This document shows positions 1 through 29,151 of a stretch of DNA of 52,553 nucleotides, in pieces (the stretch's first letter is position 1; each line of letters opens with the position of its first letter). This DNA is from Candidatus Binatia bacterium. GTDB lineage: Bacteria > Desulfobacterota > Binatia > JACPRU01. The stretch is taken from positions 1 through 52,553 of the forward strand of contig JBEVNX010000091.1 in assembly GCA_040507895.1 (NCBI GenBank), in the 5' to 3' direction. The notes under the pieces were generated by a model, which was not told where the DNA came from, made no database searches, and saw only the letters and a list, made by a program, of their open reading frames with translations. Position numbers and translations under genes: made by a program.

Positions 1-939
1 AAGAAGAGCGGCAGAATGGGGAAGAAGCAGCTGCAACGCGCTGACCGGTTGAAACGAGTAGTGCGCGACATGATCGAATGGTAGGGAAGCGGCGCGCGAA
101 GATTGCTCAAGGTACTCGAGCGTCGGCAGGAGCTGCACAGCGCAGAGGGCGGCGGTCACCATGCCCGCAAGAGTCAGGTAGCCGAAGAGCCGCGCTGTCT
201 CGCGCCATGTCCTGCGGCTAGCGCATACGGTCCAAGCCACGATTGCGAACAACGTGAGCAGCAGGTTCTCGGGAGACCCGCCCAGAAGCTCCACGCTCAG
301 AGCGAGAACCAGCCAGAGGAAGTCGCTCGCCCGACTGTTCGTCGCGAAGCGGCTCCAGCAGAACAGGACCCAGGGCGCCCATGCGGCTGCCTGCAGATGG
401 TTCGTCAGATTGAGCAGCGAGACCAGGTAGCCGCCGAGCGTGAACACCGCAGCCCCCGTTGCCGCAGGAATCCCGGTCATTCCCCGAGCACGCAGCCACA
501 CCCACGCGCCCGAAAGTGCGATGAGGTAGTGGGCGAACAAGAACAGGTTGAATCCCAGGGGAAGAGGCAGCAGCAGCAATAGGCTCGGTGGATAGAAGAC
601 TCCGCTTTGCAGGTTCGCCAGGTACGGAGTGCCCATCAGCAGCAGGGGATTCCAAAGGGGGATCTCACCCTGCAGCAAGCGCTCGTGGAGGAAATGCTTC
701 AGCGGCCAGGTAAAGAACAGAAGGTCGCGGTAGGTCGGGATGTTCCGGGGGGAGAGCAGGGACGAGAAGGTTACGCTCGTCGCGACCACCAGGGCCACGA
801 TCCCGAGAGTCGCCTCGCTCCAGACCCAGCCTGCCAGCGCGCCTAAGAATGTCCGACAAGACTGGGGGTCGGACACCTCGCGATCGGGGCTCACTGCGCG
901 CGAGGTGTCTCGAGCACTATCTACAAACTGCGTGCCCAT
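1..939 (-). CDS. Polytopic membrane protein, YfhO-like / GT-C-type putative glycosyltransferase (partial; C-terminal part runs off the window start)
   Basis: Not in the ORF track. The minus-strand frame is open from the ATG at 937-939 (GGAGGG 5 nt upstream) down to position 1 with no stop (313 codons). My translation, MGTQFVDSARDTS...LGALAGWVWSEATLGIVALVV...FTWPLKHFLHERLLQGEIPLWNPLLLMGTPYLANLQSGVFYPPSLLLLLPLPLGFNLFLFAHYLIALSGAWVWL..., is a series of hydrophobic helices. The PLWNP..G.PY.AN.QSGVFYP block matches my recollection of YfhO-family proteins. Confidence 0.75.
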   Translation of the reverse strand, partial: MGTQFVDSARDTSRAVSPDREVSDPQSCRTFLGALAGWVWSEATLGIVALVVATSVTFSSLLSPRNIPTYRDLLFFTWPLKHFLHERLLQGEIPLWNPLLLMGTPYLANLQSGVFYPPSLLLLLPLPLGFNLFLFAHYLIALSGAWVWLRARGMTGIPAATGAAVFTLGGYLVSLLNLTNHLQAAAWAPWVLFCWSRFATNSRASDFLWLVLALSVELLGGSPENLLLTLFAIVAWTVCASRRTWRETARLFGYLTLAGMVTAALCAVQLLPTLEYLEQSSRAASLPFDHVAHYSFQPVSALQLLLPHSAALL

Positions 940-1088
940 CGCGCCCTCCGCAGCCGCAAAGGGGATCGGTACCGGAGCGAACCTGGGCCAAAGGCCCTAG
1001 TCTCCGCCCCTGAACTCGCCCTCCCCATGCCCCGTCAATTGCGTTGTACAGAACTCTTCGGCGGCATGTCCAGGCGCGGCGAGCTGGC

Positions 1089-1126
1089 AAAAAGGAAGGA
1101 GGGAGGTCGAGATGACCTCCCTCCTT
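1089..1126 (-). terminator. Rho-independent terminator downstream of pilA
   Basis: Perfect 13-bp inverted repeat, AAGGAGGGAGGTC (1096-1108) and GACCTCCCTCCTT (1114-1126), with a 5-nt loop. On the minus strand the stem is followed by CCTTTTT (A-run 1089-1093 on plus). It lies about 40 nt after the pilA stop. Confidence 0.85.
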
Positions 1127-1167: not shown

Positions 1168-1533
1168 TCAGCTTCCCGCGGTGATCTGACCCGTGGTCGA
1201 GTCGAAGCTCCACGTGCCCGTTCCGCCCGTCGGGTTGGCCGTCATCGAATAGGCAGTCTGGTTCGCGGTGACGACCGCATCGGCCACGGCGGAGCTTTGC
1301 CGGAATCCATACGTCTTGAGGCTGGTCATGGTCGCATTGGTATAAGTATTGTTGTTCGACCCGTAGTACGCCTCCATGGCGGTGGCCATGTTGTGGAGGT
1401 CCGACTTCGCCTTGGAGTCGGCCGCCTGCTGCTTGTAGGTGGCATACTGCGGAATCGCGATTGCCGCGAGAATTCCGATGATCGCCACGACCACCAGCAG
1501 CTCAATCAATGTGAAACCCTGCTTCCCTCTCAT
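1168..1533 (-). CDS. pilA: Type IVa major pilin (prepilin, 121 aa)
   Basis: The internal ATG at 1531-1533 of ORF 1168..1680 gives [30 protein letters not shown]. This is the class III signal peptide with Gly-1, Phe+1 and Glu+5. GGGAG lies about 10 nt upstream. The gene sits downstream of pilB/T/C/R. Confidence 0.95.
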
Positions 1534-1604
1534 TTCTCTGTTCTCCCTTTCTTGGCAGACCTGTTCTCGGCCTTTGCCATCTCGTTTTTCGTTGTTCTCG
1601 TTCG

Positions 1605-1620
1605 TGCAATCGTGGGACCA
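1605..1620 (-). promoter_or_regulatory. Sigma-54 (-24/-12) promoter of pilA
   Basis: The minus strand reads TGGTCCCACGATTGCA. GG and GC have the exact consensus spacing (TGGCAC-N5-TTGCA) and the -12 TTGCA is perfect. It lies about 72 nt upstream of the pilA ATG, directly downstream of a sigma-54 activator gene, in a locally AT-richer leader. Confidence 0.8.
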
Positions 1621-1758
1621 CTTCTCACAGCTGCCGACCGGAAGGCATGAGAAGCAGTAAAACCCAGCATTTCCAGTCATTTACGGCGCCGCTTTACCAC
1701 AGCATGTCCCTCGATGGGAAGCAGGCTCAGGGCGAAAAATGGTCATACCGCCGCCTTT

Positions 1759-1788
1759 TTGACATTTCTCGTCATAGAGCCCTGTCAA
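1759..1788 (-). promoter_or_regulatory. Candidate upstream activator site (inverted repeat TTGACA-N18-TGTCAA)
   Basis: TTGACA (1759-1764) and TGTCAA (1783-1788) are exact reverse complements. They lie about 140-170 nt upstream of the -24 element and overlap the stop codon of the activator gene. There is a further ATGTC at 1704-1708. Assignment as an enhancer-binding-protein site is inference from position only. Confidence 0.25.
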
Positions 1789-3812
1789 TCTCGTACTTCG
1801 ATGTCTCCAAACCCATACTTGCTGAGCCGATGCCGGAGCGACCGATAGTTAATGCCGAGAATTTCAGCAGCTTTTTTGCGGACTCCACCAGCTCTTCGAA
1901 GCGCTTCCTCCAGGAGACGCTTCTCGATCGCCTCGAGCTCTGCGTCGAGGTTGGAGGATCCTCCCTGCATCCAATCGACCTCGGGGCCGGTGACCAGGTT
2001 GCGTGCCGTTGGAGCGCCGGAGCCGGGCGCTCCATTGCGCATGTCTAGAGGGAGGTCATCCTCCCTGATGATGTCGGATTCTGCCAACGCCACGGCGTGC
2101 TCGATGATGTTCTCGAGCTCACGGATGTTCCCCGGGAAAGAGTGCGCGAACAATCGGCGCATGGCACTGGGTGATAACTTGCATGTAGGACGATGGAGCG
2201 ACTCCGCAAAACGCGCCAGAAAGTGGTCCACGAGCACAGGAAGGTCGTCCGTCCGCTCGCGAAGCGGGGGCAGCTCCAGCCGGATCACGTTGAGCCGGTA
2301 GAAGAGATCCTCGCGGAAGCTTCCGGCCGCAACTTCCGCCTCGAGATCGCGGTTCGTGGCGGCGACGATGCGCACGTCGACGGCCACTAGAGCCTGTCCA
2401 CCGACCGGCGTGAACGATCGCTCCTGCAGAACGCGGAGCAATTTCACCTGCAGCGCCAGCGGTAGATCGCCGACCTCGTCGAGGAAGATCGACCCGCCGT
2501 CGGCCGTTCGGAAAAGCCCGCGGCGATCCGAAACCGCACCCGTGAATGCCCCGCGAACGTGGCCGAAGAGCTCGCTCTCGATGAGATTCGCTGGGATCGC
2601 CGCGCAATTCACGACGACCATGGGCTTGTTGCGCCGCGCGCTCAAAGAATGGATCGCGCGGGCGGCGAGCTCCTTGCCGGTGCCGCTCTCACCGGTAATC
2701 AGCACGGTCGATTCCGTCGGCGCGATCTTGTGGATCAACTCGACGATGTGTTGCATGCGCTGGCTGTGGCCGAGGAATCCGACGATTTGTGGAGCATTGG
2801 CACGTCGTTGTGCCTCCTCCGGCGTAGGCTCGGGCTCGGTTTCCGGAGAGAGCCTCTTCAGCGCAGTGACATCTTGCAGAATGAACAACGAACCGATCAC
2901 GTTCTTGTACGTGTCGCTGAGTGGCGCACTCGTGCAGCGTAGGATCTGCTCCTCACCGTCCGTCTGGGCGCGGTAGGAGACCTCCATCGGGATCGGGCCG
3001 AGATCGAGCGGCCGCTTGGCGCCGACCGACGGTCGCAACACGGGGAACACCTCGGAGATGCGACGTCCGATCAGGTCGTTGGAGGCGCGACCGATGATGG
3101 TGTCCACGGCCTGGCTCGCCGAGCGGATGACGCCATCGGCATCGGTCGTCAGCACGCCACTTTCCAGGTTCTGAATGAGCACGCGCTGCAATGTGTCGAT
3201 CCGCTGGAGGTTCTCCTCCGACTCTCGCAGCGCTTCCTGGGTGCGCTCGACGCGTTCCACGAGCACCGAAGAGAGAAACGCGATGGAAAAGAAAGACACG
3301 ATGTTGGCGGCGATGTGATAGACGAGTCCGAGCCCCGGTTGTGGTGTCGGGGCCTCGATGCCGAGCGCAGCCGGCAGAGCGTGGTAGTACACGAGGTTCA
3401 TCAGCACGCCGTAGGTGATCGACGACAGTGCCGCGGCGACGTATGCCCCGTGACGGCGCAGCACGAAGGCCGCGCCCATGATGGCGAGGTTGTACCAGAC
3501 GGCCATCGGGCTCATCAGTGAGCCGGTCAGCAGCACGGCGGCGGAATTGAGGACGATGTCGCAGATGACCTGCGCCAGAGCGAAGCCGTGCAGCTGCTCG
3601 ATGCGGGATACGGCGTAGGCCGACGCGAGCGATACGGCGTACGCAAACACGATCAGCGACGTGATCCCTCGGAGCGGAGCGTTCGGCTCCGAGAGGTCGC
3701 TCGCGGCCAGAGCGCCGAGGAAGACGGTGACGATCAGGACCCGCGCGAACTGCCAGACCCGGAGCCGGGTACGCAACGCTTGCGGGTCGAGATCCCTGCC
3801 GCCTGAATCCAT
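1785..3812 (-). CDS. pilR: Sigma-54-dependent transcriptional activator with an N-terminal polytopic membrane + PAS sensor (PilS/PilR-like hybrid; no receiver domain, no kinase core)
   Basis: 675 aa. About six hydrophobic helices span aa 22-185, followed by a coiled linker and a PAS-like segment (aa ~205-318). The AAA+ sigma-54 module has Walker A GESGTGKE, GAFTGA and Walker B IFLDEVG. The C terminus carries a Fis-type HTH (KKAAEILGINYRSLRHRLSKYG). The start is 4 nt after the pilC stop. Confidence 0.9.
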   Translation of the reverse strand: MDSGGRDLDPQALRTRLRVWQFARVLIVTVFLGALAASDLSEPNAPLRGITSLIVFAYAVSLASAYAVSRIEQLHGFALAQVICDIVLNSAAVLLTGSLMSPMAVWYNLAIMGAAFVLRRHGAYVAAALSSITYGVLMNLVYYHALPAALGIEAPTPQPGLGLVYHIAANIVSFFSIAFLSSVLVERVERTQEALRESEENLQRIDTLQRVLIQNLESGVLTTDADGVIRSASQAVDTIIGRASNDLIGRRISEVFPVLRPSVGAKRPLDLGPIPMEVSYRAQTDGEEQILRCTSAPLSDTYKNVIGSLFILQDVTALKRLSPETEPEPTPEEAQRRANAPQIVGFLGHSQRMQHIVELIHKIAPTESTVLITGESGTGKELAARAIHSLSARRNKPMVVVNCAAIPANLIESELFGHVRGAFTGAVSDRRGLFRTADGGSIFLDEVGDLPLALQVKLLRVLQERSFTPVGGQALVAVDVRIVAATNRDLEAEVAAGSFREDLFYRLNVIRLELPPLRERTDDLPVLVDHFLARFAESLHRPTCKLSPSAMRRLFAHSFPGNIRELENIIEHAVALAESDIIREDDLPLDMRNGAPGSGAPTARNLVTGPEVDWMQGGSSNLDAELEAIEKRLLEEALRRAGGVRKKAAEILGINYRSLRHRLSKYGFGDIEVRD

Positions 3813-3816
3813 CCCC

Positions 3817-5040
3817 CTACTGGCTGATGACGGCGCCCAGCTGGAAGATCGGCAGATACATCGAGATCACGAGGCCACCGATCACGACGCCCAGAAAGAC
3901 GATCACGATCGGCTCCATCAACGCCGTCAGGTTGGCGATCGCGTTGTCGACCTCTTCCTCGTAGAACTCGGCGATTTTACTGAGCATGGCGTCCAGCGCG
4001 CCGGTCGTCTCTCCGACGGCGATCATCTGACAGACCATCGGGGGAAACACCTTGCTCTGGGTGAGCGGATCGGCGATCGTTTTGCCCTCGGAGATCGAGA
4101 TCCGAGTCGCGAGGACGGCCTTTTCCACGACGCGGTTGCCCGCAGTGCGCGCGGTGATCGCCAGCGCATCGAGGATCGGCACGCCCGAGGAGATCAGAGT
4201 GCCAAGCGTGCGCGTGAAGCGCGCGACCGCCGACTTGCGGAATAGGTCGCCGAAGATCGGCAAGCGGAGCAGGAAGCCGTCGATGGCGAGCCGCCCTTGC
4301 TCGGTTCGCCAGAGCCACATGATGAGCACGACGATACCCATCACGATGGCGCCGATGAACGGGAGATTGCGCACGGTGAAGTTGCTCAAACTGATGACGA
4401 ACTGCGTCGGCGCCGGCAGGGCCTGTCCGAAGCTCGAGAACAGCTCGGCGAACACCGGGATCACGTAGACGAGCAGGATCGCGGTGACTGCGATCGCCAC
4501 CGTTACGATCGAGGCGGGATAGATCATCGCGCCCTTGATCTTCGCCCTCAGCCGCGCCGCCTTCTCCATGTAGACGGCGAGCCGGTTCATGATGTTGTCC
4601 AGAATGCCGCCGACCTCTCCGGCCGCCACCATGTTGATGTAGAGCTCGTCGAAGAGCTTCGGGTGCTTGCGCAGCGCCTCGTTGAACGACGCGCCGGCTT
4701 CGACGTCGTCCTTGATCTGCTGAATCGCCCGGCGCATGGGCTTGACCGTCGCCTGCGCCTGCAGGATGTCGAGACACTGCACGATCGGCAGGCCGGCGTC
4801 GATCATGGTTGCGAACTGCCGCGTGAAGACCACGATGTCTCGGGTCTTGACCCTCTCGTCGAGACCCGGGATGGAGATCTGTCGATCGAGCCCCTTGCCC
4901 TTCTCCTTGATCTTGGCCGGCAGCGGCTGAATACGCTGCGTGCGCAGCCGCACGATCACCGCATCGCGAGTGGCGGCCTCCATCTCTCCCCGCATGACCT
5001 CGCCCTTCGGCGAGATACCCTCCCAACGAAACACTGCCAT
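3817..5040 (-). CDS. pilC: Type IV pilus platform protein PilC (GspF family)
   Basis: 407 aa. MAVFRWEGISPKGEVMRGEMEA... has the typical PilC N terminus. It shows a duplicated GspF-type architecture with three hydrophobic segments and lies between pilT and the regulator. Confidence 0.95.
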   Translation of the reverse strand: MAVFRWEGISPKGEVMRGEMEAATRDAVIVRLRTQRIQPLPAKIKEKGKGLDRQISIPGLDERVKTRDIVVFTRQFATMIDAGLPIVQCLDILQAQATVKPMRRAIQQIKDDVEAGASFNEALRKHPKLFDELYINMVAAGEVGGILDNIMNRLAVYMEKAARLRAKIKGAMIYPASIVTVAIAVTAILLVYVIPVFAELFSSFGQALPAPTQFVISLSNFTVRNLPFIGAIVMGIVVLIMWLWRTEQGRLAIDGFLLRLPIFGDLFRKSAVARFTRTLGTLISSGVPILDALAITARTAGNRVVEKAVLATRISISEGKTIADPLTQSKVFPPMVCQMIAVGETTGALDAMLSKIAEFYEEEVDNAIANLTALMEPIVIVFLGVVIGGLVISMYLPIFQLGAVISQ

Positions 5041-5087: not shown

Positions 5088-6179
5088 TCAGCGGCGGAGC
5101 TGTCTCGGAGCGACCGGAGCGCCGGTCAGCATCGTGTGGAGCTCGTCCGGCTCGGTCGCGTATCCCATCGCGTTCTCGAACGTGATCAGCCGACGCTGGT
5201 ACAGGTCGAGCAGCGATTGGCTCATCGTCTGCATACCGTGCTTCGCCTGCCCGACTTGCATCTGCGAGTAGACCTGGTGGACCTTTTGCTCGCGGATCAG
5301 GTTGCGGATCGCGGCGTTCGGAATCATGATCTCGCAGCAGAGCACCCGCCCCTTGCCGTCCATCCGCGGGATGAGTTGCTGCGAAATCACGCCTTCCAAC
5401 ACGACCGAGAGCTGCGCGCGGACCTGCGACTGCTGGTACGGTGGGAAGACGTCGATCACGCGGTTGATCGTCTGCACGGCCGAGTTCGTGTGCAGGGTCG
5501 AGAACACGAGGTGACCGGTCTCGGCGACCACCAGCGCAGTCTCGATCGTTTCGAGATCACGCATTTCTCCGATCAGCACAATGTCTGGGTCCTGGCGCAG
5601 TACGTGGCGGAGGGCGTTGGTGAAGCCCTTGGTGTCGGCGAAGACTTCGCGCTGATTCACCAGGCAGCGCTTGCTGTCATGCACGAACTCGATCGGGTCC
5701 TCGACGGTGACGACGTGCTCGCGCCGCTCCATGTTCACCTTGTCGACCATGGAAGCGAGGGTCGTCGTTTTACCGCTACCGGTCGGCCCGGTGACGAGCA
5801 CGAGCCCGCGTGGCTGCTTGCAGAGCTCATTGACGATCGGGGGGAGTCCCAGCTCTTGGAAGCTCTGGATCTTGTACGGCACCGCGCGGAACGCGCCACC
5901 CACTGACCCCTTCTGAAGAAACAAGTTGCCGCGGAAGCGCGCGAGTCCACGCACCGCGAACGAGAAATCGAGCTCCAAATCCTCTTCGTAACGGTGTTTT
6001 TGGGACTCGGTCAGGAGGCTGTAGGTGAGGTTTTTTGTGTCCGTGGCCGTCAACGGGGGATGGGGCAGCGGAGACAGCTCACCGTGTACGCGCACGAGGG
6101 GCGGGTTGTTGACCGCGATGTGCAGGTCCGAAGCCCCTTTCTCGATCATGATCTTCAGGAATTCTTGGATGTCCGCCAT
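5088..6179 (-). CDS. pilT: Twitching-motility retraction ATPase PilT
   Basis: 363 aa. Contains MADIQEFLKIMIEKGASDLHI, Walker A GPTGSGKTTT and the PilT signature AIRNLIREQK. Confidence 0.95.
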   Translation of the reverse strand: MADIQEFLKIMIEKGASDLHIAVNNPPLVRVHGELSPLPHPPLTATDTKNLTYSLLTESQKHRYEEDLELDFSFAVRGLARFRGNLFLQKGSVGGAFRAVPYKIQSFQELGLPPIVNELCKQPRGLVLVTGPTGSGKTTTLASMVDKVNMERREHVVTVEDPIEFVHDSKRCLVNQREVFADTKGFTNALRHVLRQDPDIVLIGEMRDLETIETALVVAETGHLVFSTLHTNSAVQTINRVIDVFPPYQQSQVRAQLSVVLEGVISQQLIPRMDGKGRVLCCEIMIPNAAIRNLIREQKVHQVYSQMQVGQAKHGMQTMSQSLLDLYQRRLITFENAMGYATEPDELHTMLTGAPVAPRQLRR

Positions 6180-6230: not shown

Positions 6231-7922
<1,692 letters not shown>

Positions 7923-25813: not shown

Positions 25814-26671
25814 ATGGCCGGGCACGACGTCGCGACGCTCGATTCTTGGATGCACACCCGTGAGACGGGCAGCGGTGATGCCGTCGTCTTCTTGCACGGG
25901 AATCCCACCTCTTCCTATCTGTGGCGCAACGTGGTTCCGCGCCTCGAGAGCGAGGGCCGCTGCCTGGCGCCCGACCTCATCGGCATGGGCCAATCCGGTA
26001 AACCGAGCATCGCCTACCGCTTCGTCGATCATGCGCGCTATCTAGACTCATGGTTCGACGCGCTGTCGCTCGAGCGCGTCACGCTGGTGCTTCACGACTG
26101 GGGCTCGGCTCTCGGCTTTCACTGGGCGCGGCGCCATCCCGATCGCGTGGCGGCCATCGCGTTCATGGAGGCGATCGTCAAACCCCTGACGTGGAGCGAG
26201 TGGCCCGAGCCAGCGCGCGAAGTGTTTCGCAGCTTCCGCACCCCCGGGGTCGGCGAGAGACTGATCTTCGAGAAGAACGTCTTCATCGAGAACGTGCTGC
26301 CCGGCTCGATTGTGCGCAAGCTCGAACCCGAAGAGATGAACGCTTACCGCGAACCCTTCCGCGATCCGAAGTCGCGCACCCCGATGTGGCGCTGGCCGAA
26401 CGAGATCCCGCTCGACGGCGAACCGCGCGACGTCGTGGAGATCGTCAACGCGTACGCCGAGTGGCTCGCGCACAGCGACGTTCCCAAGCTGCTTCTCGCC
26501 TTCACGCCCGGCGCGATCCTCGGTGCCGAGCTGGTTGAACACTGTCGCAGCCACATGCGAAACCTCGAGGTCCAGCATCTCGGCCCCGGCAGTCACTTCG
26601 TCCAGGAGGACCAACCCGAGGCGATCGGCGACGCGGTTCGCGATTGGCGCAGGCGCGTGCTCGCGGCGTGA
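25814..26671 (+). CDS. Haloalkane dehalogenase (HLD-II type alpha/beta hydrolase)
   Basis: 285 aa. Contains FLHGNPTSSYLWRN (halide-stabilising Asn/Trp context), HDWGS (nucleophile Asp-Trp), FMEAIV (catalytic acid context) and GSHFVQEDQP (catalytic His). Confidence 0.88.
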   Translation: MAGHDVATLDSWMHTRETGSGDAVVFLHGNPTSSYLWRNVVPRLESEGRCLAPDLIGMGQSGKPSIAYRFVDHARYLDSWFDALSLERVTLVLHDWGSALGFHWARRHPDRVAAIAFMEAIVKPLTWSEWPEPAREVFRSFRTPGVGERLIFEKNVFIENVLPGSIVRKLEPEEMNAYREPFRDPKSRTPMWRWPNEIPLDGEPRDVVEIVNAYAEWLAHSDVPKLLLAFTPGAILGAELVEHCRSHMRNLEVQHLGPGSHFVQEDQPEAIGDAVRDWRRRVLAA

Positions 26672-26700
26672 GCCGCGATCGTTCGTCGGTCAACGCCGCG

Positions 26701-29151
26701 ATGCGTTGTGCTGGGGTCAGCGTTCCACTGTTCTCACTGCGTTCCGAACGGGATGGTGGAATCGGCGATTTCACCGATCTTGTCGCGTTCATCGATTGGG
26801 CCGCAGGCTTCGGCCAGCGTCTCGTCGCGTTGCTGCCGCTCTGCGAGATGGGGCCGGGCGAGACCAGTCCGTATCATCCGTTGTCGTCGTTCGCGCTCGA
26901 CCCAATCTTCCTCCGACCCCAAGAGCTCGTGGAGCTACGCGGCGAGCACTGCGCTCTGATGCCGAGCCGCGATTGCGTCGATCACTTCGCGGTGCGTGCC
27001 AGCAAGGCTCCGCTCTTCGAGGAAGCGTTCCGGCGCTTCCGCGCGTTTCCGAGCGAACATCCGCGGCGTCGGCGTTTCGCTCGCTTCCGCGCGGCGGCTC
27101 AGAGCTGGCTCGCAGACTACGCTCTGTTCCGGGCGTTGCTCGACGAGCAAGGCGCGCGGTCATGGACGCATTGGCCCGACGCGCTCCGGCGGCGGGACCC
27201 CGGCGCTCTCGAAGAGGCTCGTCGGCGACTCGCGGAACGCATCGCCTTCTTCGAGTTCTTGCAGTTCGCCGCCGCCGAAGCCTGGCGCGAGACGCGCGTC
27301 GAAGCCGAGCGACGCGGCGTGGTATTGATGGGCGATTTGTCGTTTGCGCCATCGCAAAACAGCGTCGACGTCTGGGCGAACCCCGGCCTCTTCGATCTGT
27401 CGAGGTCCGTCGGCGCGCCTCCCGACGCCTTCAGCGCCTCCGGGCAGCGCTGGGGATTGCCGATGTACCGTTGGGACGAGATTCGTCGCAGCGGGTGGCG
27501 CTGGTTCCGCGCGCGCGCGCGGCGCATGGCCGAGCTCTACGATCTCTTCCGCGTGGACCACGTCGTCGGTCTCTTCCGCACCTTCTGGTTCGACGGCGAG
27601 ACGCCCGGTGGCTTCGACCCCCCCGTCGAGGCTGAACAGATCACTCAAGGGCGCGAGATCCTCCGGCTGTTGGTCGAGGGAGCCCGGCCGGCGACGATCG
27701 TCGCCGAAGATCTCGGCACGATCCCGGAGTTCGTCCTGGACATGCTCGGCGCGCTCGACGTGCCGGGCTACAAGGTGCTGCGCTGGCAGCGCGACGACGG
27801 CGGCTTCATCGATCCGGCGGCTTATCCGGAGTGCTCGATCGCGACGACCGGGACTCACGACACCGACTCGCTCACCGAGTGGTGGGAGGGGCTCGCCCCG
27901 GCGGAGCGGACCGCCGTCATCGGGTCGGCGGAGGCGTCCGCGGACCCGGAGCTGACGCGGGCGCACCGACTGGCGATCCTCGAGCGGCTCTATCGATCGC
28001 CGTCGCGGTACGTGATCTTCCCGATCCAAGATCTCTTCGGATGGCGCGAGCGCATCAACACACCGGCCACGGTGGGCGTCGGCAACTGGGTATACCGCTT
28101 GCCGGCGCCCCTCGAGCGCTTGCGCGCCGATCCAGCCGTGGTCGCGGACGTAGCAGCGCTGAGGACGTTGATTGACCGCTCCGGACGATTGCGGAGAATA
28201 GACCTGAACACCTCTGGCCCACAGCGTGCTCGCGCTCGCGAGGACGGATGGGGCAAGCTCGGGGGCGCGATGGAAGAGTTCAAGACCGGCAGCGTACGAG
28301 CCAACGGGCTTCAGTTTCATTTTCTCGAAGCGGGTCGGGGTCCGCTGGTACTTTGCCTGCACGGATTCCCCGACCACGCACGGTCGTTCCGCTCCCAGCT
28401 CCCCGCGCTGGCCAAGGCGGGGTTCCGTGCCGTCGCACCGTATCTGCGGGGCTATGCGCCGACGGACGTTCCGCCGAATGGACCCTTCCAAGCCGCGGCG
28501 TTGGCGACGGATGCGGCGGCTCTGGTGGAAGCGCTCTCCCCGAGCGAGCCGGCGTTCGTGTTCGGACACGACTGGGGGGCGCTCGCGGCCTACGGCGCCG
28601 CGCAGCTCGCGCCGCGGCGCATTCGGAAGATCGCCACCGCCGCGGTGCCGCACGGGCCGCAGCTGTTGCAGGCGATCGTGTCGAGCTACGACCAGATGCG
28701 TCGCTCCTGGTACATTTTCATGTTCCAGATGCCGACGGCCGAAGCAGCAGTCTCCGGCGCCGGCTTCGCGTTCCTCGACCGGATGTGGGCGGACTGGTCG
28801 CCGGGCTGGACGGTACCGGCCGAAGAGATGGCGGCCCTCAAGGAGACGTTTCGCAAGGCTGGTGTGCTCCCGGCCGCGCTCGGGTACTATCGACATACCT
28901 TCAATCCCGCCTTGCAGGTCCCCGAGCTCGCGGAGCTGCAATCGAAGATGATGACCGCGCCGATCCCCGTGCCCGCACTCGTCTTTCACGGTCGTCGTGA
29001 TGGCTGCATCGGCGTCGAGACGCTCGAGGGCATGGAGGCGCTATGCCCTCAGGGCCTGGCCAAGGTGGTGATCGAGGACGCGGGTCACTTCGTCCACCAA
29101 GAAAGGCCCGATCGCGTAAACGAAGCGTTGATCGCATTCTTCAAGGCTTGA
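26701..29151 (+). CDS. malQ: Single ORF fusing 4-alpha-glucanotransferase (GH77 amylomaltase) to an epoxide-hydrolase-like alpha/beta hydrolase
   Basis: The GH77 half contains MRCAGVSVPLFSLRSERDGGIGDF, FRVDHVVGLFR, VAEDLGTIP and TGTHDTDS. After about 27 linker residues comes the second half, MEEFKTGSVRANGLQFHFLEAG..LHGFPDH...FGHDWGA...GHFVHQERP. There is no stop between the halves. Alternative first starts are GTG 26668 (overlaps the upstream stop) or 26644. An internal in-frame ATG lies at 28270. Confidence 0.85.
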   Translation: MRCAGVSVPLFSLRSERDGGIGDFTDLVAFIDWAAGFGQRLVALLPLCEMGPGETSPYHPLSSFALDPIFLRPQELVELRGEHCALMPSRDCVDHFAVRASKAPLFEEAFRRFRAFPSEHPRRRRFARFRAAAQSWLADYALFRALLDEQGARSWTHWPDALRRRDPGALEEARRRLAERIAFFEFLQFAAAEAWRETRVEAERRGVVLMGDLSFAPSQNSVDVWANPGLFDLSRSVGAPPDAFSASGQRWGLPMYRWDEIRRSGWRWFRARARRMAELYDLFRVDHVVGLFRTFWFDGETPGGFDPPVEAEQITQGREILRLLVEGARPATIVAEDLGTIPEFVLDMLGALDVPGYKVLRWQRDDGGFIDPAAYPECSIATTGTHDTDSLTEWWEGLAPAERTAVIGSAEASADPELTRAHRLAILERLYRSPSRYVIFPIQDLFGWRERINTPATVGVGNWVYRLPAPLERLRADPAVVADVAALRTLIDRSGRLRRIDLNTSGPQRARAREDGWGKLGGAMEEFKTGSVRANGLQFHFLEAGRGPLVLCLHGFPDHARSFRSQLPALAKAGFRAVAPYLRGYAPTDVPPNGPFQAAALATDAAALVEALSPSEPAFVFGHDWGALAAYGAAQLAPRRIRKIATAAVPHGPQLLQAIVSSYDQMRRSWYIFMFQMPTAEAAVSGAGFAFLDRMWADWSPGWTVPAEEMAALKETFRKAGVLPAALGYYRHTFNPALQVPELAELQSKMMTAPIPVPALVFHGRRDGCIGVETLEGMEALCPQGLAKVVIEDAGHFVHQERPDRVNEALIAFFKA

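Follow-up and report, generated by a model that had tools for sequence, protein, structure and literature searches.

In Pseudomonas aeruginosa, the sensor kinase PilS contacts the pilin PilA directly through its transmembrane (TM) segments, and phosphorylated PilR acts with sigma-54 to activate pilA (PMC6058289); Arg24 of PilS and Glu5 and Pro22 of PilA are reported to be important for this interaction, as summarised in PMC6528607, citing Kilmury & Burrows 2016. Here we describe a gene that occupies the position of pilS and pilR in the type IV pilus cluster of a Candidatus Binatia bacterium (contig JBEVNX010000091.1 of assembly GCA_040507895.1, positions 1 to 52,553 of the forward strand; this whole stretch of 52,553 nucleotides (nt) is called the window). 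The gene encodes a single protein, referred to below as the regulator, in which a PilS-like membrane and PAS sensor is joined to a PilR-like sigma-54 activator.

The nearest precedent for the regulator is gonococcal Rsp, which goes back to Carrick, Fyfe & Davies 2000 (via PMC6528607 and PMC10269533). Of the two later papers, one presents Rsp as a protein made up of the membrane receptor of PilS and the C-terminus of PilR (PMC10269533), the other as an nps-npa fusion that has no evident part in the transcription of pilE (PMC6528607), and the two disagree on its effect on pilin expression. A 2023 survey of transmembrane transcription regulators (TTRs) found the DNA-binding domain HTH_8 in only 72 of 50,302 membrane-bound regulators, and the part of its supplementary text that we consulted contains no Sigma54_activat entry (PMC10269533). 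Sigma-54 activators are normally described as soluble proteins, with ring assembly under the control of a receiver or a cytoplasmic ligand-binding domain. In our literature search, which had most subscription-journal papers outside its reach, we found no description of a functional PilS-AAA+ one-component regulator or of a membrane-integral enhancer-binding protein. A paper on the D. vulgaris sigma-54 regulome was set aside as not relevant, since 'transmembrane' there denotes transport functions only.

RESULTS

A PilS-type sensor and a sigma-54 activator in one polypeptide

The regulator and its predicted parts, in amino acids (aa) of the protein and in positions of the window, are as follows (ORF, open reading frame; AF2, AlphaFold2; pLDDT, predicted local distance difference test).

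1785-3812 (-): fused PilS-sensor/PilR-output regulator, 675 aa (ORF call, Pfam, NCBIfam and AF2)
3234-3764 (-): 6TM_PilS membrane domain, aa 17-193, including the TM1 arginine R24 (PF25323, 32.8 bits; cut-off 27)
2853-3185 (-): PAS domain, aa 210-320 (PAS_4, PAS_9 and PAS matches)
2781-2852 (-): acidic, Pro/Glu-rich, disordered tether, aa 321-344, replacing the DHp, catalytic ATP-binding (CA) and receiver (REC) domains (pLDDT <50 at 322-330)
2016-2780 (-): sigma-54 AAA+ module with lid, aa 345-599 (PF00158, 3e-72; PF25601, 8e-25)
1815-1937 (-): Fis-type HTH_8 DNA-binding domain with helix-turn-helix (HTH), aa 626-666 (PF02954, 2.8e-13)

In the output half, Pfam places Sigma54_activat at aa 347-512 (3e-72) and AAA_lid_14 at aa 518-599, and the protein carries the Walker A motif GESGTGKE, GAFTGA (aa 421-426) and the Walker B motif IFLDEVG (DE445-446). 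NCBIfam matches are to generic sigma-54 activators and start only at about residue 190-345. In the input half, a hydropathy scan finds six hydrophobic segments inside aa 22-186; of the lysines and arginines counted, 10 face the predicted cytoplasm and 1 the periplasm, in agreement with an N-in/C-in topology that puts the AAA+ module in the cytoplasm. The AF2 model, built from 116 family sequences (mean pLDDT 81), draws TM6 as one unbroken helix (161-215) that enters the PAS fold (218-321). After this come a disordered segment (322-330), then the AAA+ module, modelled with confidence, and, past another disordered region (595-620), the HTH. Compared by Foldseek with ZraR, FleQ, NtrC1, LuxO and FlrC, the AAA+ module gives TM-scores of 0.93-0.95; the fold search matched the AAA+ part only, and no solved structure exists for the PilS membrane domain.

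The domains that define the two partners of a phosphorelay are absent. Pfam finds no match to Response_reg, HisKA or HATPase_c in the regulator at E<=1, and a motif scan finds neither an H-box nor a G-box, while a genuine PilR (L008), run as a control in the same scan, scores Response_reg at 3.8e-31. Only ~25 residues lie between PAS and AAA+ in the window protein, and thus there is no room for hidden domains. From these absences and the short gap we conclude that the regulator is not a histidine kinase; indeed, it lacks the defining features of both histidine kinases and response regulators and belongs to neither. By its predicted domains it is an enhancer-binding protein, with an AAA+ core that has Walker A, Walker B and the arginines, with GAFTGA, and with an HTH accompanied by a candidate promoter and sites (see below). 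By the same token, having six TM helices and HTH_8 in one polypeptide, it is a transmembrane one-component transcription regulator in the sense of PMC10269533.

Elsewhere in the 52-kb window, we found no kinase, receiver or second enhancer-binding protein, based on Pfam searches of 30 of its larger ORFs and motif scans in six frames; the ORFs scanned outside the cluster are housekeeping genes only. A first-pass annotation of this DNA had read the ORF as a membrane and PAS sensor wired to a sigma-54 activator with a Fis-type HTH, and this observation is confirmed: its ORF, residue ranges and coordinates agree with the ORF call and Pfam to within a few residues, its order of domains is recovered alike by Pfam, hydropathy, motif scans and AF2, TM prediction gives the six helices it had suspected, the kinase core and receiver it had judged absent are absent at the Pfam threshold above, and the window scans likewise leave this as the only regulator between pilC and pilA, with no separate pilS in the cluster.

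A family with the same layout

What the first-pass annotation did not foresee, in addition to the precedent of Rsp, is that the architecture it described is not unique to this genome. In a search with the full-length protein, all 120 of the 120 best clusters, which range from 92% to 42% identity, combine PF25323 with PF00158. The named sources are Candidatus Binatia, 'Deltaproteobacteria bacterium' metagenome-assembled genomes (MAGs) and 'bacterium HR30'; most are MAGs of Candidatus Binatia, a group placed in the phylum Candidatus Binatota. The members carry either generic names or the JGI automatic name 'response regulator PilR (NtrC family)'. Searching with the sensor half alone returns close relatives with the same layout first and canonical PilS kinases next. 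A GTDB scan with a 3-sequence sensor alignment returned two close genomes only, so that the taxonomic spread in reference genomes is under-sampled.

The catalytic parts of the family are intact. Among 116 aligned members, no variation is seen in Walker A, GAFTGA, Walker B or most of the HTH; G421, T424, G425, A426 and the conserved arginines are likewise invariant within the family. The first-pass annotation had raised a mis-join as a possibility, and the frame proves to be intact across the PAS-AAA+ junction in relatives from separate sources: in P0002 on the syntenic contig L001, in two GTDB representative MAGs (L002, ORF of 676 aa; L003, ORF of 691 aa), and in >100 clusters drawn independently from JGI, ENA, NCBI and Logan. 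Three metagenome relatives (P0001, P0004 and P0005) have scrambled Arg/Pro-rich tails, and in P0004 the C-terminus of pilC runs into the regulator; truncated 'sensor-only' relatives are therefore not reliable, since such tails point to frameshift errors of the source assemblies. The layout marks a large and conserved family, apparently undescribed so far, whose members belong to uncultured Binatota and to a handful of other lineages.

Origin of the two halves

The sensor half is homologous to PilS kinases. An exhaustive phmmer search with residues 1-341 finds 8369 relatives; among the best 150 of these, 117 are full length, and 107 of the 117 match the kinase H-box motif while nine, the window protein included, have sigma-54 motifs instead (the counts come from motif matching and are approximate, P0140 being a false match among the 107). 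The sensor half aligns over its full length to PilS kinases with E values of ~1e-41 to 1e-23. Because the best full-length relatives mostly carry a kinase H-box, we consider the sensor half a genuine PilS input module. P0140 is itself of interest: this protein of 751 aa, from an ENA metagenome (308-kb contig), has a PilS-type six-TM and PAS region joined to a serine beta-lactamase/transpeptidase-like domain and DUF3471, and by its predicted domains is another case of a non-kinase output wired to a PilS sensor.

For the output half, the AAA+ core is 62.6% identical to that of a PilR from an unrelated organism (~50% GC), where its gene adjoins that of a canonical six-TM PilS, and 54.4% identical to that of a different sigma-54 activator of a Binatia genome, a difference that discriminates moderately, because AAA+ cores are 54-68% identical throughout. 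NCBIfam returns no PilR-specific match for the regulator. The comparison supports a PilR-like output half, by a modest margin. The suggestion of the first-pass annotation that a PilS sensor may have been fused onto a PilR output is thus supported.

The junction carries traces of how the two halves may have met. The first ~ten residues past the PAS 'LQDVT' motif, at which the DHp helix starts in kinases, are kept in the fusions, and beyond them the tether leads up to the AAA+ module, which opens with the usual 'GxxGxS'. Across the 116 family members the tether is 27-40 aa long (median 33) and rich in acidic residues (E 16.5%, D 9%, E+D ~26%); its conservation is 0.35, compared to 0.80 for AAA+, 0.81 for the HTH, 0.61 for PAS and 0.59 for the TM domain. 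The alignment with a true PilR begins at residue 335 of the window protein and residue 132 of PilR, which is the end of the receiver-AAA+ linker. The sizes also agree: ~550 aa for PilS plus ~465 aa for PilR, minus ~340 aa for DHp, CA and REC, gives ~680 aa. The simplest and most likely origin is a deletion that kept the reading frame, spanned neighbouring pilS and pilR genes and took out DHp, CA and REC.

Such a fusion has probably arisen more than once. In a tree of sensor halves, most fusions form one clade without kinases, and P0055 and P0109 lie elsewhere among the kinases. In a tree of output halves, a clade of the Binatia fusions is recovered in 123 of 200 bootstrap replicates (62%), beside PilR-like proteins with REC, P0055/P0279 and P0109/P0280 nest separately among REC-containing regulators, and monophyly of all fusions is seen in 0 of 200 replicates; all trees are neighbour-joining, and the canonical PilR set consists of the best matches to P0055, which biases the comparison. 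Just two close relatives of P0055 share the fusion. Ordinary REC-AAA+-HTH proteins match the output half of P0055 at 56-65% identity, and of these many are auto-named PilR and one comes from Thermodesulfobacteriota; REC-AAA+-HTH proteins auto-named PilR are also the closest non-fused relatives of this half. The P0055 locus has a GC content of 49%, compared to 60-66% for the Binatia loci, and its gene order is pilB-pilB-pilT-pilC-fusion-pilA-ABC transporter. Two or three independent fusions are likely, judging from these trees.

The regulator gene occupies the pilS-pilR position in a conserved pil cluster

The genes that surround the regulator in the window are those of a type IV pilus cluster:

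6231-7922 (-): pilB, type IV pilus extension ATPase, first gene of the cluster (T2SSE, 1.6e-145, and MshEN)
5088-6179 (-): pilT, retraction ATPase, 363 aa (T2SSE, 5e-47)
3817-5040 (-): pilC, platform protein (T2SSF, two matches, 1.8e-67)
1168-1533 (-): pilA, major type IV pilin, with leader MRGKQG, mature N-terminus FTLIELL..., Glu5 and Pro22 (N_methyl, 9e-10; PilA-type NCBIfam)

The ATG of the regulator gene lies 4 nt past the pilC stop codon. Position 1533 is most probably the start of pilA, an assignment based on the sequence and on alignment with relatives. The order pilB-(pilT)-pilC-fusion-(pilA)-ABC transporter-PilD is kept in loci L001 and L003-L007, and members of 42-48% identity have the order pilB-(pilT)-pilC-fusion-(pilA)-hypothetical-ABC transporter/TPR-prepilin peptidase. 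This mirrors the order in Myxococcus xanthus, pilB-T-C-S-R-A-G-H-I-D, with one gene in place of pilS and pilR. At each locus examined, the fusion gene occupies the pilS-pilR slot of the pil cluster.

Between the regulator gene and pilA, and around pilA, we find the following candidate control elements (UTR, untranslated region; dG, folding free energy):

1605-1620 (-): sigma-54 -24/-12 promoter TGGTCCCACGATTGCA, ~73 nt upstream of the pilA ATG (-24/-12 spacing)
1742-1764 (-): candidate upstream activator site TGTCAAAA-N11-TGAC, ~20 nt past the regulator stop codon (motif match)
1763-1787 and 1668-1680: further (A)TGAC half-sites/direct repeats (repeat search)
1553-1579 (-): conserved stem-loop in the pilA 5' UTR (dG -11.5 kcal/mol, z = -1.9)
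1096-1126 (-): intrinsic terminator ending the pilA transcription unit (13-bp stem with 8 GC pairs, and T-run)

Four loci share TGGTCC-N5-TTGCA without change, inside a spacer between the regulator gene and pilA that is otherwise poorly conserved. In the distant loci L005 and L007, pilA is preceded by TGGCACgccccCTGCA and TGGCACgtcccTTGCT, with the pattern TGGCAC-N5-(T/C)TGC(T/A). A sequence scan found no sigma-70-like promoter for pilA. The combination TGTCAAAA-N11-TGAC occurs once in the window, compared to 0.01 occurrences expected, and stands at the same position in L001-L003; at the corresponding position there are palindromes in L005 (GTGACA-N15-TGTCAC) and L007 (GTGACA-N5-TGTCAC). In all, the candidate sigma-54 promoter, of the form TGG-N9-TGC, and the TGTCA/TGAC sites are kept in six loci. 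The sites at which PilR of P. aeruginosa acts have TGT-N11-AGA and GTCT elements (PMC6058289). The TGTCA/TGAC sites would be those of the regulator. A block in the 5' UTR, GGCAAAGGCC...AGGTCTGCC, is also kept in four loci, although its hairpin is thermodynamically unremarkable (z = -1.9). A possible site for IHF between enhancer and promoter, in a conserved TAAC-N4-TTGA-like block, was rejected as too weak a match.

Several further genes were noted in passing. Just downstream of pilA, a gene at 1-996 (-) that runs past the start of the window encodes a multi-pass membrane protein with no Pfam match; its counterpart in L001 (13410-15146) has a weak YfhO match, with Wzy_C and glycosyltransferase genes following it, and the region could be a locus for modification of pilin or of a surface glycan. 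In a further locus (P0007, JGI 3300075153), a canonical six-TM PilS kinase follows pilB-pilT-pilC and is itself followed by a rotamase gene, not by pilR, which shows that the two regulatory genes can lie apart; upstream there are Ras/Arf-like and Roadblock (MglA/MglB-type) genes. Farther along the window, an 835-aa ORF at 26644-29151 (+) combines a GH77 4-alpha-glucanotransferase with a C-terminal alpha/beta-hydrolase domain, and a separate alpha/beta-hydrolase gene (25814-26671) precedes it with a slight overlap.

A probable membrane-tethered activator of pilA

The reading that we favour, with a probability of roughly 0.6, is that the regulator is functional and acts on pilA as a one-component sigma-54 activator tethered to the membrane, with the pool of pilin in the membrane as its probable gate. 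We infer pilin as the signal, as well as the sign of regulation, the assignment of the DNA sites and the activation of pilA. The regulator would be made from the pilB-pilT-pilC operon and anchored in the inner membrane, would bind the TGTCA/TGAC sites that start ~20 bp past its own stop codon, and would by ATP hydrolysis open the sigma-54 promoter ~130 bp downstream, driving a monocistronic pilA. By analogy with PilS, the membrane domain would sense the pool of unassembled pilin, with the TM1 arginine of the sensor and Glu5 of the pilin taking part. With pilin bound, the AAA+ modules would be kept from activating; once pilin is depleted, they could assemble into an active ring. The occupancy of the TM bundle by pilin would be relayed through the continuous TM6 helix and PAS, so that conformation takes the place of phosphotransfer. 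Through the acidic tether of constrained length, the ATPase and HTH would be able to contact DNA while the protein stays in the membrane, and an enhancer lying directly past the stop codon would hold the target DNA close to where the protein inserts. The TM1 arginine, R24, is arginine in 146 of 146 aligned sensors, fused or not, and this invariance, with Glu5 and Pro22 of the pilin, is consistent with pilin sensing without phosphotransfer.

A number of observations weigh against this reading, to which the moderate discrimination of the AAA+ comparison also belongs. Almost all type IVa pilins have Glu5 and Pro22, which therefore carry little specific weight. The route of the signal from the membrane to the ATPase is not evident, because the tether is disordered and there is no rigid coupling helix, and we know of no characterised precedent for a hexameric AAA+ ring with 36 TM helices. 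No rpoN was found in the window by the Pfam searches and six-frame scans (other sigma-54 activators occur in the related genome of L006), the genome may hold a separate pilS/pilR pair elsewhere, and the host organisms are uncultured. Two of the more distant members, L004 (8094-9110) and L006 (8145-9163), have no pilin gene after the regulator; a hypothetical gene of 323-327 aa stands directly after it, and then an ABC transporter. Since no pilin gene lies between regulator and transporter, the pilin target would be elsewhere in these genomes. L006 also has, just upstream of pilB (1-2712) and besides the fused regulator, a REC-PAS-sigma-54 activator and a hybrid kinase (PAS-HisKA-HATPase-REC-Hpt); these could give the pilus genes a second input, of a PilS2/PilR2-like kind. 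These arrangements suggest that regulation in some members, in target or in inputs, may be more complex.

Alternatively, the same tethered activator might answer to a signal other than pilin, with pilA as its output: its PAS domain or TM bundle could respond to some small ligand, to redox state, to the tension or lipid state of the membrane, or to a different component of the pilus. PAS is conserved to the same degree as the TM domain (0.61 versus 0.59), a PAS ligand is not known even for PilS, and the regulators of L004 and L006 lack a following pilA, all of which would suit such a signal; nevertheless, the arginine that is implicated in pilin contact is invariant in every aligned sensor and the fusion gene keeps the pilS-pilR slot wherever we looked, and we consider a non-pilin signal doubtful. 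A second alternative would have the membrane and PAS part serve as an anchor and inhibitor, from which a signal-dependent cut in the tether frees a soluble AAA+-HTH activator, as happens with other transcription factors tethered to membranes. The tether is disordered, acidic and poorly conserved, yet constrained in length (27-40 aa), and sigma-54 activators truncated at the N-terminus, among them NtrC1, DctD and XylR, are often constitutively active. The tether has no conserved cleavage motif, however, the cluster has no dedicated protease gene, and regulators of the ToxR/CadC type are reported to be active from the membrane without release (PMC10269533), which together make regulated proteolysis unlikely.

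Two further explanations are strongly disfavoured. If it were a decayed relic of a pilS-pilR deletion, as has been proposed for Rsp of N. gonorrhoeae, pilA would be transcribed in some other way; but >120 clusters (92-42% identity) are full-length with invariant or near-invariant Walker A/B, GAFTGA and HTH, a conserved sigma-54 promoter precedes pilA with no sigma-70 promoter found, and similar fusions recur in other lineages, so that we regard decay as very improbable. An artefact of assembly or a frameshift that merged two genes might draw support from the scrambled tails of the metagenomic relatives P0001, P0004 and P0005. Yet the junction is in frame in L001, L002, L003 and >100 independent clusters, and this reading of the same frame by independent assemblies refutes the artefact.

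DISCUSSION

If the favoured reading of a membrane-tethered activator is right, a conserved and recurrent family would show that enhancer-dependent transcription is workable from the membrane and that the PilS-PilR phosphorelay is dispensable for coupling the pilus system to pilin gene expression. More tentatively, the regulator might represent the first recognised class of integral-membrane sigma-54 enhancer-binding proteins, in which the ring is assembled at the membrane and gated directly by unassembled pilin in the six-TM domain, conformational coupling has repeatedly and independently replaced a phosphorelay, and an enhancer placed after the protein's own stop codon keeps the target DNA near the insertion site; this wider proposal is less secure than the activator role itself. 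With one protein and one promoter, such a system would be a simpler one in which to study signal transmission by the PilS membrane domain. The family also corrects database names, since many members are auto-annotated as 'response regulator PilR' and yet have no receiver.

The PilS-PilR systems of P. aeruginosa, Geobacter, Myxococcus and Kingella, and Nps-Npa of commensal Neisseria, share with the regulator a six-TM input with the TM1 arginine and a PAS domain, an output of sigma-54 AAA+ and Fis-type HTH, a sigma-54 pilin promoter with sites of the TGT/GTC type, and a position between pilC and pilA. The regulator differs in having no DHp, no catalytic ATP-binding domain and no receiver, so that there is no phosphotransfer, and in forming sensor and activator from one polypeptide, which makes the activator membrane-bound rather than cytoplasmic.

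Rsp, as far as its published description allows comparison, resembles the regulator in being a single ORF with a PilS-like membrane N-terminus and a PilR-like C-terminus, apparently produced by a deletion between adjacent genes. In contrast, Rsp is described as a remnant, and the proteins considered here form a conserved family of large size, in which the ATPase motifs are intact and a sigma-54 promoter is kept before pilA. The rpoN gene of N. gonorrhoeae is inactive. The phylogenetic distance and the polyphyly in the output-half tree make independent origins for Rsp and for the regulator family likely.

Sensor and AAA+ module are also joined without a receiver in activators of the NifA, NorR, XylR/DmpR, PrpR and AcoR types, which have PAS, GAF or V4R sensors and in which, as expected for the regulator, the regulatory domain would control assembly or activity of the ATPase. 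To our knowledge, the characterised examples of these types are all soluble cytoplasmic proteins, none with an integral membrane domain. Finally, ToxR, TcpP and CadC (TTRs, PMC10269533) resemble the regulator in that a single membrane-integral protein both receives the signal and binds DNA and no phosphorelay is involved, but they are mostly single-pass activators of sigma-70 transcription with winged-helix or HTH domains, whereas the regulator joins six TM helices to an AAA+ module that must oligomerise and contact sigma-54.

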